Assembly: GCA_900128395.1 (NCBI GenBank)
Contig: LT649346.1
Coordinates: forward strand, 1 to 34,809
Direction of reading: 5' to 3'
Source: Stramenopiles sp. TOSAG23-2
Lineage: Eukaryota
Length of the DNA: 34,809 bases
Shown here one piece after another: positions 3,000 to 34,809 of the stretch. Both the position numbers and the translations under genes were made by a program. Below the pieces are notes generated by a model. That model saw nothing but the letters and a program-made list of their open reading frames with translations, was not told the DNA's origin and made no database searches. Position 1 is the stretch's first letter, and every line of letters starts with the position of its first letter.

Positions 3000-3199
3000 T
3001 TCTATGATGGATTTTGTGCGGTGTATGTTTATAATGTATTTTTATTTATTGTAATTGTGAATTGTGAATTGCGCGTGCAATTATTTCAACAATAATTATT
3101 TTGGTTGATTTCTTCTACGATGGATTTTGTACGGTGTATGTTTATAATGTATTTTTATTTATTGTAATCGTGAATTTAAATTGTGAATTGCACGTGCAA
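3000..3199. repeat. Imperfect direct duplication of about 80-87 bp (about 3000-3080 and 3113-3199) upstream of the GH43 gene
   Basis: Both copies read TTCTA(T/C)GATGGATTTTGT(G/A)CGGTGTATGTTTATAATGTATTTTTATTTATTGTAAT...TTGTGAATTGC(G/A)CGTGCAA. Confidence 0.9.
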
Positions 3200-3792
3200 C
3201 AACAACATAAACAACAACAACAATTGCACAATTATTATTATTATTATTTTAATAATTGAAATAATTTTCACAAAAAAATTGTGTTTTTGTTGTTGATTCT
3301 ACATAAAATACCTAGCAAATGACAATAATTTATACTTGAAAGGGAAATTAGAATATAAGAAAATACGAAAATACGAACCATTCCATTTTTTCCATTTTCC
3401 ATTCATCGATTCATCCATTTTCAACTATCAAATGCCATAAATTATTCTATTATATATACTCATATACAGGCAAGGATATACTAAGTGCAAGCCGGAAATC
3501 TCAGCTGGGAAGACTCTGCGCTTGCCAGACGAGTATTATAGGCAAATAAGAATACCAAAAAAAAAAAATTACTACAAAAAAAATTACAAAAATGGTATCA
3601 GGTGTGCTCAGACCAAACCAGCTACAGCAAAGATTAAGAATAATATATATATTCTTATATATTCTATTGTAGTATAGAAGAGATCAAGATAGAACATATA
3701 CATGTGTGATATTATATTTAAATAACAGATAAAAGAGAAATACAGAACAACAATAAAATAGTAGTAGTAGTATTAATAATAAAGTAGCAACG

Positions 3793-7598: not shown

Positions 7599-9939
7599 AT
7601 GTCAGTACAACAAGGTCCTTTAGATTTATCATTATTGTCTGATGGGATATGTATTATAACTGGTGCAGCAAACGGTGGAATTGGATTTGGAATAGCAACA
7701 CGTGCTATGGAAATTGGTATGGATATATTAATTTTAGATTTACGTGCAGATGTATGTGAAAATGCAGCAAATGAATTAAGATCCAAAAATACTTCTAATA
7801 ATAATAATATTATTATTGGTTTAGCATGTGATGTAAGTATATATATATATATATTATATTCCTCTAAAAAATTATATATATATATATGATACATCCTCAC
7901 TAACACACCACTGATCCGTACGTTTCGTTTCACACAGGTTACAAAAGAATCCGATTTAAAAAGTATTGTAGATCTATTACCAAAATATTTTGGTAATAAA
8001 AAACGTGTCTCAGCTTTATTTGCAAATGCAGGCGTTATACTTCCAGTTCCTTCAATTACACAAGGTAATATAAAAAATTGGCAAGTAACATTTGATGTTA
8101 ATGTTTTAGGTGTATTTTTAACAATTAAAACGTTTTTACCAGTTATGCAAAAATCAAAACAACAATGTATTATTACAACGACAGCTAGTACTGCTGGAGT
8201 CATGCGAGGTAGTAAAGCTACTAATGCATATACAAGTTCAAAACATGCCGCATGTGTTATGACAGAAGAATTTGCAAGTGGGTATGTGTATATTAACTTC
8301 TATATATTTCCCTCTATATATATATATATATATATATCCTCTCTAACACACACACACACACACACACACATCACTCTATTTATATACACGCGTAATATAT
8401 ACATATATATACATTATGCACATAAACATGTGTACACCCGATACACACAGATTTATTAAATTATCGCCACAAGTACGATTCCATGTATTAATGCCATGTA
8501 TTGTTCGTACAGGATTAGGACAAACAAGTCAAAATGTTGTTGACAATGGGAAAAAATACAAAGAATTTAATCGTGATGATTTGATGTCCGTTGGTATGTT
8601 AGATCCGTCGTTAGCAATGACACCATATCGTCATGCACAACAAGTCTTTGATAGAATTGCTGCTGGTGAATTTTATATGATCACTGATAATATTCGTCCA
8701 TATGTTGATCATGATTTTAAATTTAATGGAGAAGGTTTAGCACGTTCACGATTTGCAAATATTTTAAAAGATGATTTTAATCGTAAAATTGATCATAATC
8801 AAAGACCAGAAAATTTATATATTCAAGAAATGATACGAAAAAATAATAGTACAAATTTTGGTGGTATCATGTCGCAACGAACATTGCCATCAGGGGTAAA
8901 TGTTGTACAAGGAAATGTAGATTTATCAAACTTTAAAGATACAGTATGCGTTGTTACCGGTGCTGCTAATTTTGGTATTGGATTTGGAATGTGTGAACGT
9001 GCATGTGAATATGGCATGAGTATTGCATTGTTAGATTTAAATCAAAATATTATTAATGGTGCTGTAGATGCATTGCGTAAAAAATATCCAAATGTACAAG
9101 TAGAAGGGTTTCAGTGCGATGTGACAAATAATGTATTGATGAAAAATGTTGCAAATCAAGTAAAAGCTGCATTTAATAAGAAACGTATTTCATCTGTATT
9201 TGCAAATGCAGGTGTTGCATTTGGTAGTAAAAATTTATTAAATGCAACTGCTAAAAATGTTGCAATAACATTAAATGTCAATTGTATTGGAGTTGTTAAT
9301 ACATTGCAAGCCTTTGTACCTATATTAAAAGAAACGCAAAAGCCAGGATTAGTATGTACAACAGCTAGTGTTGCCGGTGTTACAAGAGGTAGTGGAACTT
9401 TATCCGGTTACTTTGCATCAAAACATGGTGCAACGGTGATTACAGAGGGACTTTCTGATGAATTAAAATCATCCCATCCAAATATATCTTGCCATGTTTG
9501 CATGCCATGCATTGTTGCTACGCCTTTAATGGAAACTAGCAATGCAAATAAAAATAACGAAACGTTAGCTACAGATCGATTGGAATCTCAATTGGATGTT
9601 GCCAGGATGCAAGAACAGGCACCAGAATTGATGGGTGGATTGGCGATGTCACCATATAATCATGCACGGCAAGTCTTTGATAGAATTGCTGCTGGTGAAT
9701 TTTACATGATTTGTGATAATATACGCCCATATGTTGATCATGATTATCCATTAAATGGAGCAGTAAATGCAAAGATTAGGGCAGCTCCATTCTTTAAACC
9801 AGATTTTCAACGTTCAGTCGATTGGGACAATGTAGGTTTTGCAACTTCACCGATGTTTCGAAGAGTTGGAGAATTGGCTCGTGAAGCTGCAAAAGCAAGA
9901 AAAGCAAAGAAAAAAGTTGCCGTAAAATCGAAAATGTAG
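7599..9939 (+). CDS. Tandem two-domain short-chain dehydrogenase/reductase; exons 7599-7832, 7938-8281, 8451-9939 (about 688 aa)
   Basis: Two SDR units, each with TGAANxGIG, CDVT, FANAG, TTAS and Y..SKH. Introns GTAAGT..CTAAC..CACAG (7833-7937) and GTATGT..CACAG (8282-8450) join the exons in frame (ACD/VTKES and SG/FIKL). Confidence 0.9.
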
Positions 9940-19569: not shown

Positions 19570-21402
19570 TTAACTCTTCAATAATTTAGACAGATTCAAT
19601 TTTGGCACTATACCAAGATTATTCTTATTATCATTACCAGCTTTTGTAATCATGGTTTCATCGAGTGAGAAATCTCCACCAATTCCTCCTTCCTCGACTT
19701 TCCCAAATACTTTGCTACCACCATCTTTATTGCTTGGTGTTAAGACTTTACTTCCTTTACTTAATACATTCAAAAAGCCCAATTGTGCTGGCGTACGTTT
19801 CTCCAAGACGCCTAGACCAATAGATGCCCGATGCCGTGCAGCTTGTGCAGCAGCAGCATCTTTATATTTTGGAGAAACGGTAATAGGGGATGCAGGTGGA
19901 ACAACTTGTATTTTTTCTTCACCTGACGTATCAATACTTAATTTTGGTGGGCGGCCTTTCTTCCTGCCAGATGACATAGCAGACAATGGTGGGTTCCCTT
20001 TTGGTGTTGGAGGCTTAAATCCACCTCTTCTTCCCGACATTCCACCGCGTCTGCTAGATCCAATTTTAGCAGATAATGGCGGTTCCCCTTTTGGCGTTGG
20101 TGGTTTAAAACCTGTGCGCCCACTTAACATTGCTCTACCCGTGCTTATGCGATTGCTATTAGGTGGTGGGCCTTGTGGTGTAGGTGGTTTAAAACCAACT
20201 CTGCCACTATTTGGCATACCTCTTCGACCACTACCAATTGGCATTCCTCGTCTTCCACTACCAATTGGCATACCTCGTCTTCCACTACCAATTGGCATAC
20301 CTCGTCGTCCACTACCAATTGGCATACCTCGTCGTCCACTACCAATTGGCTTTCCACCTCTTCTACCACTTATATTTACATTATTCGGTGTTGGTGGCTT
20401 CGCCAATCCTAAATTTGATCTTGCGCTACTGATGACGGCACCACCTCTATTTCTACCAGACATACCACCTCTATTTCGTGCGCTTATAATAGCACCACCT
20501 CTATTTCTACTGGACATACCACCCCTTCTACTACTACCAATTCCAATACTAGGTTTTAACGATGGAGGTGCACGTCCTGATAATCTAGCAGAAATCGCAA
20601 ACGATGGTGCTTTCCCACGCCTAGCCGTGCCTCGCCTTGCTGTTCCACCTCTGCCCCTACCTCTTCTACCAGTCGCCCCACCAAATCTACCTGTACGTTG
20701 AGTAAACATATTACTAGAAGATGCTTTTTCCCAATTTAAATATTTATCTACTAAACAAAATGGATGCGTTAACAATTGACCAGCAGATGTTTGAGCTTCA
20801 CAGCAACGTATGAAATCTTTCGCTTGATCAGATAAACCTTGTTTGGAACATAATTCTTCCACAAAACGACCGATACTATTTAAATCTGCTAATCGTTTTT
20901 CATTATCACTAGAAAATGAACCATTATGAATAGGTAATGAATATATATTGATAATTTTCAACACCCCTTGTGCAGCAACAATGATATCGGTCAATTGAAA
21001 ACCGCCTAAATAATACGCTTGCCCATGTAAATATTGAAGTCCACGTAATATTTGACCAACATATCCACCAGCAATATGTTCACTAACGGTGCCAAAATTT
21101 TCAATAACACTTTTCAACGTACCACCACCAACTAATTCACTATATATAATTATTGTTGCATTTTCAGAACGCTCACATTTATACGATCGCAATAAATTAA
21201 CATGGCTAAACTCCAACATCAATTTGGATTGTTTCTCGACGTCATTTGACGAATTATTTGGAATTCTTTCATATATCATAGGTTTTCCATATGGTGACAG
21301 ACATTTTTTTATTACATTATATTTACCTTGATACAAATCTGAACCATGTTGTACGTTTGAATATGATATTTCCAGTAATGATTTATTATTATTATTAGAC
21401 AT
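19570..21402 (-). CDS. Degenerate STE/MAP3K-like kinase domain (probable pseudokinase) + G/R/P-rich repetitive tail
   Basis: Retains H.NLL..Y, YSELVGGGTL..VI..FG..SE.....Y..QIL.GL.YLH and SA.QLL.HPF. Lacks GxGxxG, VAIK, HRD and DFG. Confidence 0.75.
   Translation of the reverse strand: MSNNNNKSLLEISYSNVQHGSDLYQGKYNVIKKCLSPYGKPMIYERIPNNSSNDVEKQSKLMLEFSHVNLLRSYKCERSENATIIIYSELVGGGTLKSVIENFGTVSEHIAGGYVGQILRGLQYLHGQAYYLGGFQLTDIIVAAQGVLKIINIYSLPIHNGSFSSDNEKRLADLNSIGRFVEELCSKQGLSDQAKDFIRCCEAQTSAGQLLTHPFCLVDKYLNWEKASSSNMFTQRTGRFGGATGRRGRGRGGTARRGTARRGKAPSFAISARLSGRAPPSLKPSIGIGSSRRGGMSSRNRGGAIISARNRGGMSGRNRGGAVISSARSNLGLAKPPTPNNVNISGRRGGKPIGSGRRGMPIGSGRRGMPIGSGRRGMPIGSGRRGMPIGSGRRGMPNSGRVGFKPPTPQGPPPNSNRISTGRAMLSGRTGFKPPTPKGEPPLSAKIGSSRRGGMSGRRGGFKPPTPKGNPPLSAMSSGRKKGRPPKLSIDTSGEEKIQVVPPASPITVSPKYKDAAAAQAARHRASIGLGVLEKRTPAQLGFLNVLSKGSKVLTPSNKDGGSKVFGKVEEGGIGGDFSLDETMITKAGNDNKNNLGIVPKLNLSKLLKS
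20210..20350. repeat. Coding 27-bp minisatellite, about 5 copies (GSGRRGMPI)
   Basis: Unit ATTGGCATACCTCGTC(T/G)TCCACTACCA repeated in tandem. Confidence 0.92.
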
Positions 21403-30840: not shown

Positions 30841-31416
30841 ACAAATAAAACAAGTGTGTGTTCTTTTTTTTTTTCTTTTTATCACAATATTGAAGTACAA
30901 ACTATGTTTTACAAGGCACTTCCTTTTACAAAATTTATTTCTTTGTTTGTTTGTGTCCCCAAGCCAGGCAAGCTGGGCAAAAGCCATTGCCAAAGATCTC
31001 ACATACATTCCACTATTATTACTATGAAATATCATGCTTTTATATAATACACATAGCATTGGTTCAGCATTACAAGTCAAATTGTCCAATATTGTAATAA
31101 CAACAGGGATTTTAGTAGATTCTCGGATTCTCCCTAATAATGTAGTTGGTTCGGAAGATTGTTTTCAGAAGAAGTACATCTTCGTTCTTGAGTGTATTAG
31201 ATGATATCAATAACTCAATAGCGCACCTTTATCTACCCCTAGAAATCACGATTGTTTTCCATTTCGAAATATTAGCTCAGCGTTAAAGATCTACTAGTAC
31301 AAGAAAATAGAAAGGGTACGTCCTGTCTTCCTTCCTTTATATAGTGTTTTTTATTTGGTATTTTGGTATTTTGGTACTTGTGCTCGTGTTACCTTCTTAT
31401 CTACATCACACCAGTA

Positions 31417-32697
31417 ATGAGATTGAAGCATACAATTTTTTGTAGCATATTGCTGTATTTTGTTAATAGTAATTATGTTATTTCTATTTCAACGAAAACC
31501 ATTTGTAATCATGAAGGGCGGAGCAATGCTTTTAGCAAACCAATTGACAACTGTACTCAATGCATCACAAAAACTAAAGCAACCACAGGTTTGGAAATTG
31601 AAATTGCCATTTGCAAAGTTGAAAAAGATGAAAAGTATCATGAACAAAAGGAACTTAAATGTGAATATTGTCAATGTAACGCTGGTCATAGATTTAATAT
31701 CAATAATGATAAATGTACACATGTATTTCAAGATACAGTATGGGTAACTGTGTTTAATTATGCATATTATGTGCCATTATACATATTTGCTCTGTATATT
31801 ACCATTAAATTGCATTGTCATAAACTTTCAGTAAATGTACAGAAAAGACCCCAATTTGCACAACAAAGCCGTTTGCGTCGTTTAAGCATAAAATGCACTG
31901 CTTCTTGCGTTGGAAATAGAGTGATAATAGCAATTAATTGTTTGATTGCATATTTAAGCCTACAACTGTTTCGTCACTTAATATGTGGAGTGGAGAATGA
32001 AAATTATATAATCTCTGTTTTTGCGTATCTAATAATAAAAACAACAAGCATTAAATGTTTAATGTTAGCAAGTATTTTTGTAATAACTTCTTGGGCAAAA
32101 ACGACGAATGGGTTGGTGAACCATTGTTACGGCAAACTACCGAATTTTATCACATCGAAAGCAATAGGTTTTGTTTTAAAATTGATTGTTTTTGTTAGCT
32201 GGTGTATATACCCGATGGCTCGTATCTTTGGTAAAGAATATTATTATTTTAATATGTATTTTAATCTCATATTTCTTGTAACAGGTGGTACATTTGCATT
32301 GTTTTATGGGGGGTTGTTAACGCATTGGTTGAAACGTGTTGCGGGCAGAAGGAGTATACAAAATACAACCCAGAAGAAGCAGTTTGATCTAGCGGTAGTC
32401 ATGTCTCGTTATCTTATAGGAATTGGTCTTTACGTAGTTTTCACGTTTGTTTGCTACTTATTTGTGCCCGGCTCGACAGCTGTTGAAATGTTTATTTATT
32501 TATTTACATTAGCACACTTGCATTTATTTTTAGTGTTCTGTCTACTTCGAATATTTGAAGCAAAAGTTGAAAGCAATTTGTTTCTTTGCGGTTGTTGTTC
32601 TAGAAGACATAATAATGTTGTACTGTCATCTACAGAAGAAATTTCTTCAGAGCGTCAAAAGCAAGGAAGCATGGGGTTTGTTTTAGAGGTAAATTAA
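31417..32697 (+). CDS. 7TM GPCR-like membrane protein with a signal peptide and Cys-rich/EGF-like ectodomain
   Basis: First ATG at 31417. Hydrophobic leader, Cys-rich region (..C.C..G.......C), then seven hydrophobic segments. Basic loop between TM5 and TM6. C-terminal CGCC. Confidence 0.65.
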   Translation: MRLKHTIFCSILLYFVNSNYVISISTKTICNHEGRSNAFSKPIDNCTQCITKTKATTGLEIEIAICKVEKDEKYHEQKELKCEYCQCNAGHRFNINNDKCTHVFQDTVWVTVFNYAYYVPLYIFALYITIKLHCHKLSVNVQKRPQFAQQSRLRRLSIKCTASCVGNRVIIAINCLIAYLSLQLFRHLICGVENENYIISVFAYLIIKTTSIKCLMLASIFVITSWAKTTNGLVNHCYGKLPNFITSKAIGFVLKLIVFVSWCIYPMARIFGKEYYYFNMYFNLIFLVTGGTFALFYGGLLTHWLKRVAGRRSIQNTTQKKQFDLAVVMSRYLIGIGLYVVFTFVCYLFVPGSTAVEMFIYLFTLAHLHLFLVFCLLRIFEAKVESNLFLCGCCSRRHNNVVLSSTEEISSERQKQGSMGFVLEVN

Positions 32698-32830: not shown

Positions 32831-33101
32831 AAATAATTTCAAATAATAACTACTCGTAAGAAAGTGAAGCAGCGACAGAGAGAGAGATACATGCAAGAAG
32901 TATACGTACAAAAACAAACAATTCAAACAATTGCATCATTACTCATTGACAATAATAATAATAATAAATACGAACCAAAACAATACATGTAACAATATGT
33001 TAATACTGATTAACAACCTCATAGATAATAGTAAGGACCATCTTTCCATAACTTCAACTATAGAATAGACTTTCAGATTTTTTTTGGAGATTTACAATAT
33101 G
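32831..33101 (+). pseudogene. Degenerate duplicate of the 5' leader and N-terminal coding region of the LRR gene
   Basis: Aligns with 33182-33480 with several indels and loss of the ATG (AAACAATTGCATC versus AAACTATGGCATC). Confidence 0.85.
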
Positions 33102-33213
33102 ATAGGTAAAATATATTTAACACTACCATTATGTTGCACTAAGTATATTTTTTTATAATCGAAATAATCTAATCTAATAAGAAATAATTTCAAATAATAA
33201 CTAAGAAAGTGAA

Positions 33214-33215
<2 letters not shown>

Positions 33216-33252
<37 letters not shown>
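33216..33252. repeat. (AG)n microsatellite in the LRR gene leader
   Basis: About 18 AG units, much shorter in the upstream duplicate. Confidence 0.9.
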
Positions 33253-33254
<2 letters not shown>

Positions 33255-33295
33255 CATGCAAGAAGTATATATGTACAAAACAAACCATTCAAACT

Positions 33296-34353
33296 ATGGC
33301 ATCATTACTCATTGACAATAATAATAATACAACAACAACAACAACAACAACAACAAATACGAACCAAAACAATAACAATGTTAATACTATTAACAACCTC
33401 ATAGATAATAGTAATGACCATCTTTCCATAACTAATATACTTTCAGATTTTGAAGAATTACCTGGAGATTTACAAATATGTATCAGTCGCTATTTTGATG
33501 ATGATATTCTTGCAATGATAAATGTGTTTGCAAAAACAAGTACAAAATTTCTTAAATTTGATCCCTTGCGTAGTTATTATTTTATAATTGTATTGCCAAA
33601 TAAATATGTGGTCCGTTATGGAGTAGATTTTCATGATGTAAGTGCATTTTTGCATCACAAGAATCTCACAGATGACGATGCATTAGCTATTGGTGAAGAA
33701 TTAAGAACAAACAATACATTAGAGTTCTTGCAACTACGTAATAATAATATTACTGATGTACAAAGTATTGGTGAAGCATTAAAAACAAACAATACATTAA
33801 GGAGATTGGACCTAGATAATAATCAACTTAGGACCTAGATAGTAATAATATTACTGATGTACAAAGTATTGGTGAATTGTTAAAAGCAAATAATACATTA
33901 ACGGAATTGTGGCTACGTAATAATAATATTACTGATGTACAAAGTATTGGTGAAGCATTAAAAACAAACAATACATTAAGGAGATTGGACCTAGACAATA
34001 ATAATATTACTGATGTACAAAGTATTGGTGAAGGATTAAAAACAAACAATACATTAACAACATTGTACCTAGACAATAATAATATTACTGATGTACAAAG
34101 TATAGGTGAAGCGTTAAAAACAAACAAGACATTAGAGGAATTGCACCTATATAGTAATAATATTACTGATGATGGTGGAATACAAAGTATTATTGATGCA
34201 TTAAAAACAAACAATACATTAAAGACATTGTCCCTACATAATAATCAACTTAGTGATAATATAATATCACAATTAAATGCTATAGAACAATATAAGAGAG
34301 ATGGATCAAACAGGTATCAACAAGTGGAAGGGATGGTGATAGCGGCATTGTAA
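33296..34353 (+). CDS. F-box-like + RI/NLRC3-type leucine-rich repeat protein, frameshifted at about 33808-33841 (about 344 aa if repaired)
   Basis: ATG at 33296. F-box-like FEELPGDLQICISRYFD. Seven 26-aa LRRs (IGEALKTNNTLxxLxLxNNNITDVQS). A 23-bp extra segment shifts the frame and gives TAG at 33836-38. Confidence 0.75.
33689..34260 (+). repeat. Tandem array of seven 78-bp LRR-coding units
   Basis: Unit starts at 33689, 33767, 33868, 33946, 34024, 34102 and 34189. Unit 2 carries +23 bp and unit 6 carries +9 bp. Confidence 0.95.
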
Positions 34354-34424
34354 TTTATAATAGTTTAAGTTACAATAAACAACAACATTAGCATGGCCAT
34401 GCAATTATTCATAATTAGAATAAT

Positions 34425-34523
34425 ATGAAATCACAATTAAATGCTATACAACAATATAAAAGAGATGGATCAAACGGGTATCAACAAGTGGAAGGGATGG
34501 CACTGATGGTGATAAGGACATAA
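34425..34523 (+). pseudogene. Second copy of the LRR gene C-terminal cap (MKSQLNAIQQYKRDGSNGYQQVEGMALMVIRT*)
   Basis: 34430-34500 aligns with 34266-34336 with three substitutions. The frame is still open. Confidence 0.85.
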
Positions 34524-34809
34524 TAATTAATATATATTTATATACTACCAACTACAATATACTATCCATTTATTATCCGCGATCATCATCAAACATCAAA
34601 CTTCAACCTCTTCCTTCGCACTACCAGGTACCAGGTAGCACCTTCCGTCCTTTTTTCCATTTATTTATTAGAATTATTATTATTTATTCTAGATTCTAGC
34701 CAGCTAGATACTGTATTGTTTTGTATGGAGAGAGTAAAAAAAAAAGTACGCTTCGTAATTAATTACTAAAAGATAGAGATAAGATAATTGAAATTATATT
34801 GTATATATA

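Follow-up and report, generated by a model that had tools for sequence, protein, structure and literature searches.

A leucine-rich repeat family with a near-identical DNA framework and a hypervariable predicted binding face in a marine eukaryote

The repeat array and its gene

Close to the end of the stramenopile contig LT649346.1 – analysed here over its full 34,809 nucleotides and referred to as the window – lies a gene with seven tandem leucine-rich repeat (LRR) units, a member of a large family. In this array and across the family, the codons of one face of the repeat (12, 13, 15 and 17, hereafter the x codons, and to a lesser extent 4 and 18) are close to saturation with change, whereas the framework around them is near-identical in DNA, including its non-preferred codons. 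Immune-type receptors of fungi, plants and animals are the best-known bearers of such a pattern.

The seven units begin where the original prediction – drawn from the sequence of the window – had placed them, at 33689, 33767, 33868, 33946, 34024, 34102 and 34189, and the array extends over 33689-34266. Their number stands, but the uniform length of 78 bp does not, as the second unit (U2) measures 101 bp, U6 measures 87 bp and U7 is a distinct terminal unit. Tandem Repeats Finder (TRF) reports a period of 78 with 5.2 copies and 82% matches at 33833-34245, and all eight unit matches of an nhmmer search within the window (of 196 in total) fall inside the gene, at 33689-34258. In codon register the repeat reads I G E x L K T N N T L x x L x L x n N N I T D V Q S. 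As predicted, ACA TTA (T10 and L11), TTG (L14) and CTA (L16) occur in every unit (7/7), and the run AAT AAT ATT ACT GAT GTA CAA AGT, said to be present in most units, is intact in five of the seven (U1-U5). The x signatures EF-Q-R, RR-D-D, TE-W-R, RR-D-D, TT-Y-D, EE-H-Y and KT-S-H are an exact match. That these positions vary is likewise borne out; that they do so by whole codons holds only in part, for across the family it is mainly the first two bases that are randomised, the third being mostly kept. Codons 4 and 18 are variable too.

The contrast between the two classes of codon is far beyond chance. Among U1-U6, all 12 nucleotide columns of codons 12, 13, 15 and 17 are variable, compared with 10 of 66 elsewhere (Fisher p=1.5e-8), and pairwise differences per site amount to 0.594 in x codons vs 0.064 in the other columns; with all seven units included, the counts become 12/12 and 23/66 (p=1.9e-5). 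Units are consequently more alike in DNA than in protein: identity between U1-U6 is 0.855 for DNA and 0.769 for amino acids, and between U1-U5 it is 0.864 and 0.796, respectively.

Pfam models recognise the translated stretch 33832-34350 as LRR – LRR_4 with 74.9 bits (cut-off 27), LRR_1 with 47.6 (20.6), LRR_6 with 45.8 (23.4) and LRR_8 with 35.7 (27). The structure was modelled with AlphaFold2 (AF2) on P0004, a homologue that is intact and shares 75% identity with the query 33877-34350, with a predicted local distance difference test score (pLDDT) of 72.7; in the model, each unit forms one strand (x13-L14-x15) and one helix, which together make a horseshoe. The best Foldseek matches of this model include the LRR of NOD2 (34% identity, root-mean-square deviation 1.7), NLRP1, NLRP3, ribonuclease inhibitor (RI) and a Roco LRR, those to NOD2, NLRP1, RI and NLRP3 having E values of 1e-6 to 1e-5. 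The model thus assigns the repeats, whose units have 26 residues, to the RI-like or NOD-like receptor (NLR) class of LRRs; units of RI/NLR-type LRRs usually have 28-29 residues. It also places the x positions among the exposed β-strand residues, in agreement with their predicted location on the LRR concave face.

The gene and the features that belong to it or flank it, all on the forward strand, are as follows (ORF, open reading frame; UTR, untranslated region).

32831-33101, forward: relic copy of the 5' end of the gene (upstream region, start region and first codons), from local alignment to 33182-33480.
33216-33252, forward: (AG)18.5 microsatellite 5' of the start codon (TRF period 2, 100% matches).
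33296-33688, forward: N-terminal part from the ATG at 33296, comprising an N/T-rich low-complexity stretch, a helical domain of ~80 residues (DFEELPGDLQICISRYFDDDILAMINVFAKT...) and a KNLTDDDALA lead-in (ORF).
33689-33766, forward: LRR unit 1, x signature E / EF-Q-R (codon-register alignment, nhmmer).
33767-33867, forward: LRR unit 2, A / RR-D-D, 101 bp owing to an insertion; nhmmer splits it into 33767-33830 and 33831-33867.
33811-33833, forward: 23-bp partial duplication in unit 2, ending in terminal-unit-like AATAATCAACTTAG (TRF period 101 at 33742-33924).
33868-34101, forward: LRR units 3, 4 and 5, L / TE-W-R, A / RR-D-D and G / TT-Y-D (codon register, nhmmer).
34102-34188, forward: LRR unit 6, of penultimate type, 87 bp with 9 extra bases (D-G-G); homologues have the same form.
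34189-34353, forward: terminal LRR unit 7 (IIDALKTNNTL..NNQLSDN) and C-terminal cap (SQLNAIEQYKRDGSNRYQQVEGM...), with the stop codon TAA at 34351-34353 (ORF, cap alignment).
34381-34540, forward: relic of another 3' end, comprising a degraded terminal unit and a cap ORF that remains intact (34425-34523, MKSQLNAIQQYKRDGSNGYQQVEGM...), from alignment to 34210-34367 and translation.
34540-34557, forward: the family's 3'UTR motif (ATATACTACCAACTACAA), behind the relic cap and not behind the main ORF (motif scan).

Unit 6 corresponds to the family's 'NNITDDGGIQS' form ('DDGG/DDSG IQS'). The duplication in unit 2, missed by the original prediction, moves the frame from 2 to 1, where a TAG follows in frame at 33836-33838; in the assembly, the array is therefore not one ORF. 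Two ways of restoring it were rejected: the 23 bp have no GT..AG ends at any equivalent cut position and a length that fits a duplication rather than an intron, and an alternative genetic code would not help, given that the old frame past 33836 is without LRR and the window has long ORFs in the standard code. The duplication is either a lesion that made the copy a pseudogene or the junction of a recombination, or else, possibly, an error of amplification or assembly; among the contigs listed for the best-matching run none spans 33760-34074, so that the insert is seen in the assembly only. Broken as assembled, the window copy has most likely become a pseudogene or arisen by recent recombination.

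The gene sits at a locally rearranged spot, between relics of another 5' and another 3' end, neither of which had been noted before. The upstream relic is identical to 33182-33480 at 235 of 245 aligned bases (95.9%, in 13 blocks), has lost its start codon (ATT in place of ATG), carries several indels and coincides with repeat families D3, D5-D7 and D9. The downstream relic, which corresponds to repeat family D4, is identical to 34210-34367 at 131 of 149 aligned bases (87.9%).

The ~80-residue N-terminal domain, helical at low confidence in the AF2 model, is common to loci L002, L003, L009, L010, L013, L015 and L042 and to proteins P0003-5, P0013 and P0018. It has no Pfam match or meaningful PDB sequence match. 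An F-box was suspected by eye at LPGDLQICISRYFDDDIL..V.AK and is unconfirmed: the window member returned 0 Pfam families at E up to 10, the Pfam search of six members gave only TINF2_N at 0.026 in three of them, and Atlas F-box/LRR_6 clusters reached only 0.86-0.87, below the Atlas lead threshold. Upstream, the LRR locus is adjoined by an ORF of 450 residues (31345-32697, forward strand) with many hydrophobic stretches and a Cys-rich N-terminal part, for which Pfam gave no match.

A large family with a shared C-terminal module

The doubt that the array might have few paralogues, raised together with the original prediction, can be set aside. The LRR part matches 284 proteins at E<=1e-3 (of 1698 candidates of similar length), the best of them 79% identical and most from marine metagenome contigs; a further 130 longer proteins match at E<=1e-20, and a scan of metagenome contigs yielded 45 loci with DNA. 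The family is abundant in ocean metagenomes and present in metatranscriptome contigs, and in the best-matching run the summed contig depth over the LRR bins is – as a rough figure – 10-70x that of the flanks. Among viral contigs there were 13 pattern matches, with no relative among them.

Units were collected twice. A DNA profile gave 96 full units outside the window but could favour framework-like DNA; a protein profile run on six-frame translations gave 212 ungapped units, 204 of them outside the window and 200 distinct, with 45 loci represented. The outcome of the two censuses agrees. In the 204 units, L5 is TTA in 163/188 cases, L11 is TTA in 160/181, L14 is TTG in 174/192 and L16 is CTA in 162/197; N8 is AAC in 159/181, yet the neighbouring N9 is AAT in 145/146. 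This codon pattern recurs in all seven source groups (7/7). In eight other genes of the window, CTA makes up 6% and TTG 22% of the Leu codons, and AAC 18% of the Asn codons. The framework codons thus run against the usage of the genome. The sharpest control lies in the variable codons, and it points to ancestry, not to codon bias: codons for D, N, H and Y end in C at codon 15 in 73 of 74 cases and in T at codon 17 in 77 of 79, and the units are therefore of recent common DNA ancestry or have been kept alike.

For quantitative comparison, 95 internal units, drawn from 36 loci, formed a core set (protein hidden Markov model score >=35, full and ungapped; the distant L037, L044 and L045 left out). 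The proportions of synonymous and nonsynonymous differences (pS and pN) in the framework are 0.105 and 0.049, whereas pN at codons 4, 12, 13, 15, 17 and 18 is 0.50. Column diversity at codon positions 1, 2 and 3 is 0.053, 0.034 and 0.096 in the framework, and 0.53, 0.57 and 0.31 in the x codons, where the Nei-Gojobori pS (0.34) is unreliable through multiple hits and was left unused. As the original prediction would have it, variation is thus concentrated in the x codons rather than spread evenly over the unit. L14, which lies between the two most variable codons, is TTG in 95 of 95 core units. Mean identity is 0.745 at the amino-acid level and 0.845 at the DNA level.

Could so uniform a framework be produced by the assemblies themselves? 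It would then be an ordinary LRR family whose DNA uniformity is largely an artefact, with error correction and graph simplification collapsing variants and joining units of different paralogues. The sources do resemble metagenomes and small runs of single-cell type; arrays are fragmented, in that 33760-34074 is spanned by none of the Logan contigs listed for the best-matching run, and many contigs end within them. Framework stretches free of variable codons measure 21 and 33 bp, in the k-mer range of short-read assembler correction. L013 and L021, moreover, have a common 3' flank and different N-terminal parts; they were rejected as an orthologous pair on that ground and may represent a true recombinant or a chimeric contig. 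Correction, however, imposes only what is already in the majority, and the majority codons are position-specific and run against the bias of the genome (TTG, CTA and AAC, as well as NNC next to NNT). The pattern is found in seven source groups that include plain metagenome assemblies, framework variants do exist (pS 0.13-0.25 within groups, and 0.16-0.19 for L003 and L009), and the coding cap and the non-coding 3'UTR motif described below, which are single-copy per gene, are equally conserved. We therefore regard an artefact of this extent as quite unlikely. The non-preferred, position-specific majority codons, their recurrence across source groups and the conserved single-copy elements argue that the homogeneity is qualitatively real, although its absolute level may be exaggerated by short-read assembly.

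The repeats form part of a common C-terminal module, consisting of a short linker, 3-10 LRR units, a cap helix and, in 18 of 29 genes, ~50 nt of 3'UTR with the motif. (Unit hits per array, over 24 arrays with a cap, range from 1 to 10, or from 3 to 10 without the 5'-cut L023.) The cap has a pS of 0.063 over 29 genes. The 18-nt motif, ATATACTACCAACTACAA, stands 13-39 nt downstream of the stop codon in 18 of the 29 genes with a complete cap (e.g. L001 3500, L002 3670 and L005 3490), and a scan of both strands of 228,637 bases with <=2 mismatches gave 21 matches, 20 of them 13-190 nt behind the end of an LRR ORF; its function could be regulatory or lie in termination, common to these genes, or it could be a trace of how the module spreads. 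A YMKWE/YIKWE linker lies directly upstream of the first LRR unit in 10 loci (L006, L012, L014, L016, L017, L020, L021, L029, L030 and L036), where homology starts sharply at a Lys-rich run before SAAYMKWEKEFDGKT; from there onward the DNA is near-identical, while upstream it is unrelated. At the opposite end, P0001, P0002, P0025, P0031 and L024 replace the usual short tail by a motif at the extreme C-terminus, ...NKI[KN]LRF, which may be a sorting or interaction signal.

Upstream of the module, Pfam searches recognise various partners:

L004, L005 and L020: TIR_2 and a ResIII/DEAD helicase of superfamily 2 (SF2) type.
L030: Schlafen-type helicase (SLFN-g3 model).
L036: Pkinase and TIR_2.
L016: Peptidase_C14 (caspase-like).
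L003 and L019: Ank repeats.
L018: XK-related membrane protein.
L017: SidE_PDE-like piece.

Several further module-bearing loci encode membrane proteins without a family match, and equivalent fusions are seen among the longer database proteins. To judge by these domain assignments, the partner repertoire resembles immune and cell-death proteins. TIR, a helicase-type P-loop domain and LRR follow one another in this order in L004, L005 and L020; the window gene consists of the small N-terminal domain and the LRR. No NTPase was detected by Pfam in the window gene, and the P-loop relatives match ResIII, DEAD or SLFN-g3, not NACHT or NB-ARC above threshold; NACHT (PF05729) appears only in distant LRR relatives, 30-45% identical. 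The genes of the family are dispersed among ordinary housekeeping genes. Given the TIR, caspase, kinase and helicase parts to which the module is joined, the suggestion of variable recognition proteins, plausibly for defence, seems a reasonable one.

Homogenisation, diversification and their possible causes

Within its genes, the module is in most comparisons far more uniform than the remainder, with framework pS (0-0.2) for the most part well under the values of the N-terminal regions (0.3-0.4). Among L004, L005 and L020, pS is 0.31-0.37 in the N-terminal part (734 aligned codons), 0.000-0.079 in the LRR framework and 0.000-0.048 in the cap, with an x pN of 0.47-0.52; between the window gene and L002, the corresponding pS values are 0.416 (81 codons), 0.073 and 0.068. 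Framework pS is about as high within genes (0.090) as between them (0.106). Such values fit an exchange or replacement of modules between paralogues, as far as can be told from substitution counts. Turnover is also suggested by L021 and L029, which differ at 9/698 positions in the N-terminal part, 15/171 in the framework and 20/54 x sites, as well as in unit number.

They also bear on another scenario, in which a young mobile cassette – linker, LRR, cap and 3'UTR – spread recently without ongoing conversion, and its x codons then changed fast under selection. The sharp 5' boundary of homology before SAAYMKWEKEF in the 10 linker loci, whose upstream parts are unrelated, is what such a cassette would leave behind, and the 3'UTR motif behind 18/29 genes, the dispersal of the genes among housekeeping genes and the cap pS of only 0.063 speak for it as well. 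Against this, L004, L005 and L020 share an old N-terminal architecture and still have a pS of 0-0.08 in LRR and cap, so a later exchange or replacement of the module would be needed; this amounts to concerted evolution. The ORFs flanking the modules showed no transposon or retroelement features, and more than one organism or assembly, related to each other, has the family. On balance, a recent spread by itself is an unlikely explanation.

It appears reasonably probable to us that the large, dispersed family of an AT-rich marine planktonic eukaryote represents a germline recognition repertoire, generated by concerted evolution together with diversifying selection, in which the module serves as a defence-type sensor. 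The concave face of the LRR would bind variable ligands, and diversifying selection on point substitutions would drive it apart. Ectopic gene conversion or whole-module replacement among paralogues would keep framework, cap and 3'UTR alike, and unequal crossing-over would alter the number of units; frameshifted copies, nonsense codons and truncated relics could then be by-products of module turnover. If the analogy with NLRs and RI-type LRRs holds, the module may control the N-terminal effector, as its sensor or its auto-inhibitor, and on the same analogy the TIR and caspase members point to a role in defence or cell death.

Several observations weigh against a repertoire shaped in this way. 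The x codons have changed ~7-fold more than framework synonymous sites (dN 0.82 vs dS 0.11), and L004 and L005 combine a framework pS of 0.000 with an x pN of 0.50; a contrast of this size exceeds what ordinary positive selection usually produces, and gene conversion alone cannot copy the framework yet spare the x codons in the same tract. The uniformity of the module relative to its gene has exceptions, too. In three of ten window-type pairs (L002/L009, L002/L042 and L009/L042) the N-terminal pS (0.092-0.211) is lower than that of the framework (0.142-0.306), and in L021/L029 it is 0.015 vs 0.053. Three of four clean nonsense codons in intact units lie in variable codons – TAA at codon 13 in L005 (2791) and L013 (2782) and TGA at codon 4 in L004 (3373), the fourth being TAA at codon 3 in L041 – and the frameshifts of L030, L032 and L040 begin within codons 12-18, two of the three near contig ends. 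These counts are small; nonetheless, as selection does not favour nonsense or frameshift lesions in x codons, a raised mutation input there is conceivable. All the DNA, furthermore, comes from short-read and partly single-cell-type assemblies, in which correction or graph simplification could erase rare framework variants and arrays could be chimeric, several contigs ending inside them. Finally, the RNA contigs (run X15) that match LRR and cap pieces of the window gene do so with 3-4 mismatches per ~60-70 bases; for this reason they derive, by sequence, from relatives and not from the window copy, and attest at most to relatives in an RNA library.

Some of these observations would be expected if diversification were programmed, that is, if a dedicated process rewrote the 18-bp binding-face cluster of each unit with the framework as a homology guide – be it by local hypermutation, by short patches templated on relics or pseudogenes, or by somatic reshuffling – faster than ordinary evolution and perhaps between cells. 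The extreme contrast of L004 and L005, the invariance of the L14 TTG, the position of nonsense codons (3/4) and frameshifts (3/3 outside the window) in the x cluster and the gene-end relics beside the window gene would all have a place in such a process. So would locus pairs with near-identical flanks or N-terminal parts that differ at 25-39% of x-codon bases: besides L021/L029, these are L012/L036 (27/1011 differences in neighbouring sequence, 6/135 in the framework and 15/39 at x sites) and L026/L040 (21/2871, 1/85 and 6/24). In L009/L010, by contrast, 13/1025 neighbouring, 13/540 framework and 6/162 x sites differ, and all between-locus comparisons of arrays rest on short-read contigs that are possibly chimeric.

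The machinery that the original prediction envisaged next to the array did not come to light: neither reverse transcriptase (RT) nor transposase, recombinase or deaminase was found among the 29 ORFs of the window, and 78 flanking ORFs of >=150 residues from L001-L043 (82 were listed, with four of the distant L044/L045 left out) contain no RT, transposase, recombinase or deaminase either. Nor is there much re-use of units as cassettes. Once L010 is dropped as a near-duplicate of L009, the remaining 92 core units have 86 distinct signatures at codons 12, 13, 15 and 17. Identical-signature pairs number 7, compared with 1.39 expected by shuffling (p=0.002), which suggests that whole-unit copying occurs a little; the x positions are almost independent, with only 13-15 reaching p=0.015. 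As nearly every unit is unique, a small donor library can be discounted.

Neither does the arrangement recall the systems invoked for comparison. The variable lymphocyte receptor (VLR) genes of lamprey and hagfish are assembled somatically from flanking LRR cassettes with the help of cytidine deaminases; in the 34.8-kb window there are no unit cassettes outside the gene (8/8 nhmmer matches within 33689-34258), and its flanks hold only the gene-end relics. The likeness to the shuffled LRR exons of Ectocarpus also fails, for the units run head to tail in one frame, at 78-bp spacing and with no intervening sequence. In diversity-generating retroelements (DGRs), adenine mutagenesis of AAC or AAT codons gives NNC or NNT codons with the third base fixed. 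A DGR-type process was nevertheless rejected: all four bases occur at the variable columns, which show no deaminase-like or adenine-specific spectrum, and framework adenines remain invariant, including those at four-fold sites (e.g. T7, T10 and V24), where diversity is 0.04-0.06. A structure-blind process, in addition, would not spare exactly the buried residues, and selection would be needed anyway.

With neither enzymes nor cassette re-use nor a DGR-like spectrum, there is no evidence for repeat shuffling or targeted diversification as a mechanism, and we consider a programmed process very improbable. The version of it in which codons 12-18 are the target of homology-guided rewriting or hypermutation, with invariant framework codons such as TTG as guides and decayed copies and relics as raw material, strikes us as just as improbable. 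The original prediction was thus probably right about a variable recognition repertoire, presumably for defence, and wrong about how it arises.

Related systems and further features of the window

The closest described phenomenon is found in fungal NLRs, whose WD40, ANK and TPR repeats are highly conserved internally, are positively selected at hypervariable sites of the binding surface, differ in number and are exchanged between paralogues; effector domains are combined with them in various ways, and the accepted account couples concerted evolution with diversifying selection (PMC4986451). Examples include the nwd / HET-E / HET-D family of Podospora and related ANK and TPR NLRs (PMC1805685, PMC12222747). 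Shared with the present family are repeats that hardly differ inside a gene or from one paralogue to another, a small number of hypervariable residues at the binding face, a repeat number that appears to vary and a single repeat type combined with many N-terminal effectors. In the present family, the hypervariable positions are those with an x pN of 0.50 (vs a framework pS of 0.105), located in β-strands of the structural model. The differences concern, first, the domains: fungal NLRs, in which LRRs were not found, join WD40, ANK or TPR repeats to NACHT or NB-ARC as their central domain (PMC4986451), whereas here the repeat is an LRR, NACHT and NB-ARC are lacking and the P-loop partner, where there is one, is a ResIII/DEAD-type helicase. 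Second, high internal conservation is defined there as >85% amino-acid identity between repeats over >=100 residues (PMC4986451), a level that is not reached here (0.745-0.80) because 5-6 of only 26 residues vary. Third, the host is an uncultured marine protist rather than a fungus. We read the family as an LRR-based variant of the strategy of conserved repeats with a hypervariable face.

The LRR-ROCO proteins of Ectocarpus have positively selected residues on the concave face and are proposed pathogen receptors, each repeat being a phase-0 exon and the variation being ascribed to exon shuffling (PMC3341825). Ectocarpus LRR-ROCO and NB-ARC-TPR proteins thus share with our family a protist-grade lineage and concave-face LRR diversity, but they have one-repeat exons and ROC-COR, whereas here contiguous intronless units are combined with TIR, caspase, kinase and helicase partners. 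Animal NLRs (NOD2, NLRP1 and NLRP3) and RI resemble the family in fold and repeat class, and in having the LRR C-terminal to signalling domains; the 26-residue unit, the extreme DNA identity from unit to unit, the family-specific cap and 3'UTR and the absence of NACHT set it apart. VLRs, too, are LRR proteins with diversity in concave-face residues, yet here neither flanking unit cassettes nor, among the 29 window ORFs, a deaminase was found. To the DGRs of bacteria and phages there is a likeness in the NNC/NNT codons with a fixed third base, unlike in the constant framework adenines and the eukaryotic host; an RT and a template repeat were not found. A description of the LRR-cap module family itself was not found in the literature searched, which is no proof of its absence.

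Little is known of the means by which single-celled eukaryotes of the sea recognise viruses, parasites or prey. If the family is indeed a germline repertoire of the kind we favour, it would represent an independent origin of a fungal-NLR-like strategy, with LRRs and without the NACHT/NB-ARC core, and would supply concrete candidate immune receptors for uncultured plankton. Were homology-guided rewriting to prove true instead, the repertoire could shift on the time scale of strains or even cells, and a diversification of immune receptors would have evolved outside animals and prokaryotes. In either case, the gap between change on the binding face and at adjacent silent sites offers a clean system in which to separate selection, conversion and possible local hypermutation.

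The remainder of the window, AT-rich (G+C ~30%) and gene-dense, with long ORFs in the standard code, is for these reasons a piece of a compact eukaryotic genome. Its other genes encode an aspartyl protease, a pyridoxal phosphate (PLP) enzyme, dehydrogenases, a DnaJ-Ank-TPR protein, an AAA ATPase, a SHIPPO-repeat protein and a scramblase, and its sequence is present in small single-cell-like DNA runs (three coded organisms) as well as in marine metagenomes and metatranscriptomes. A search with the AAA ATPase gave one match at 98%, followed by others at 48% and archaeal CDC48 entries, and Atlas clusters labelled as haptophyte, on a minority of their members, scored 0.90-0.91; both are too little to assign a taxon.

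Three minor features of this part of the window deserve mention. A 27-bp tandem repeat (5.2 copies, 94% matches) at 20211-20350, with a decayed second array at 20439-20539, lies inside a minus-strand ORF of 618 residues whose sole match, to protein kinases, is partial. Directly downstream of the aspartyl-protease ORF, at 3000-3205, a stretch of 113 bp is directly repeated in 1.8 copies with 84% matches. The forward-strand ORFs 7890-8456 and 8347-9939, in overlapping frames, both match short-chain dehydrogenase models and could reflect an intron, a frameshift or a tandem pair.

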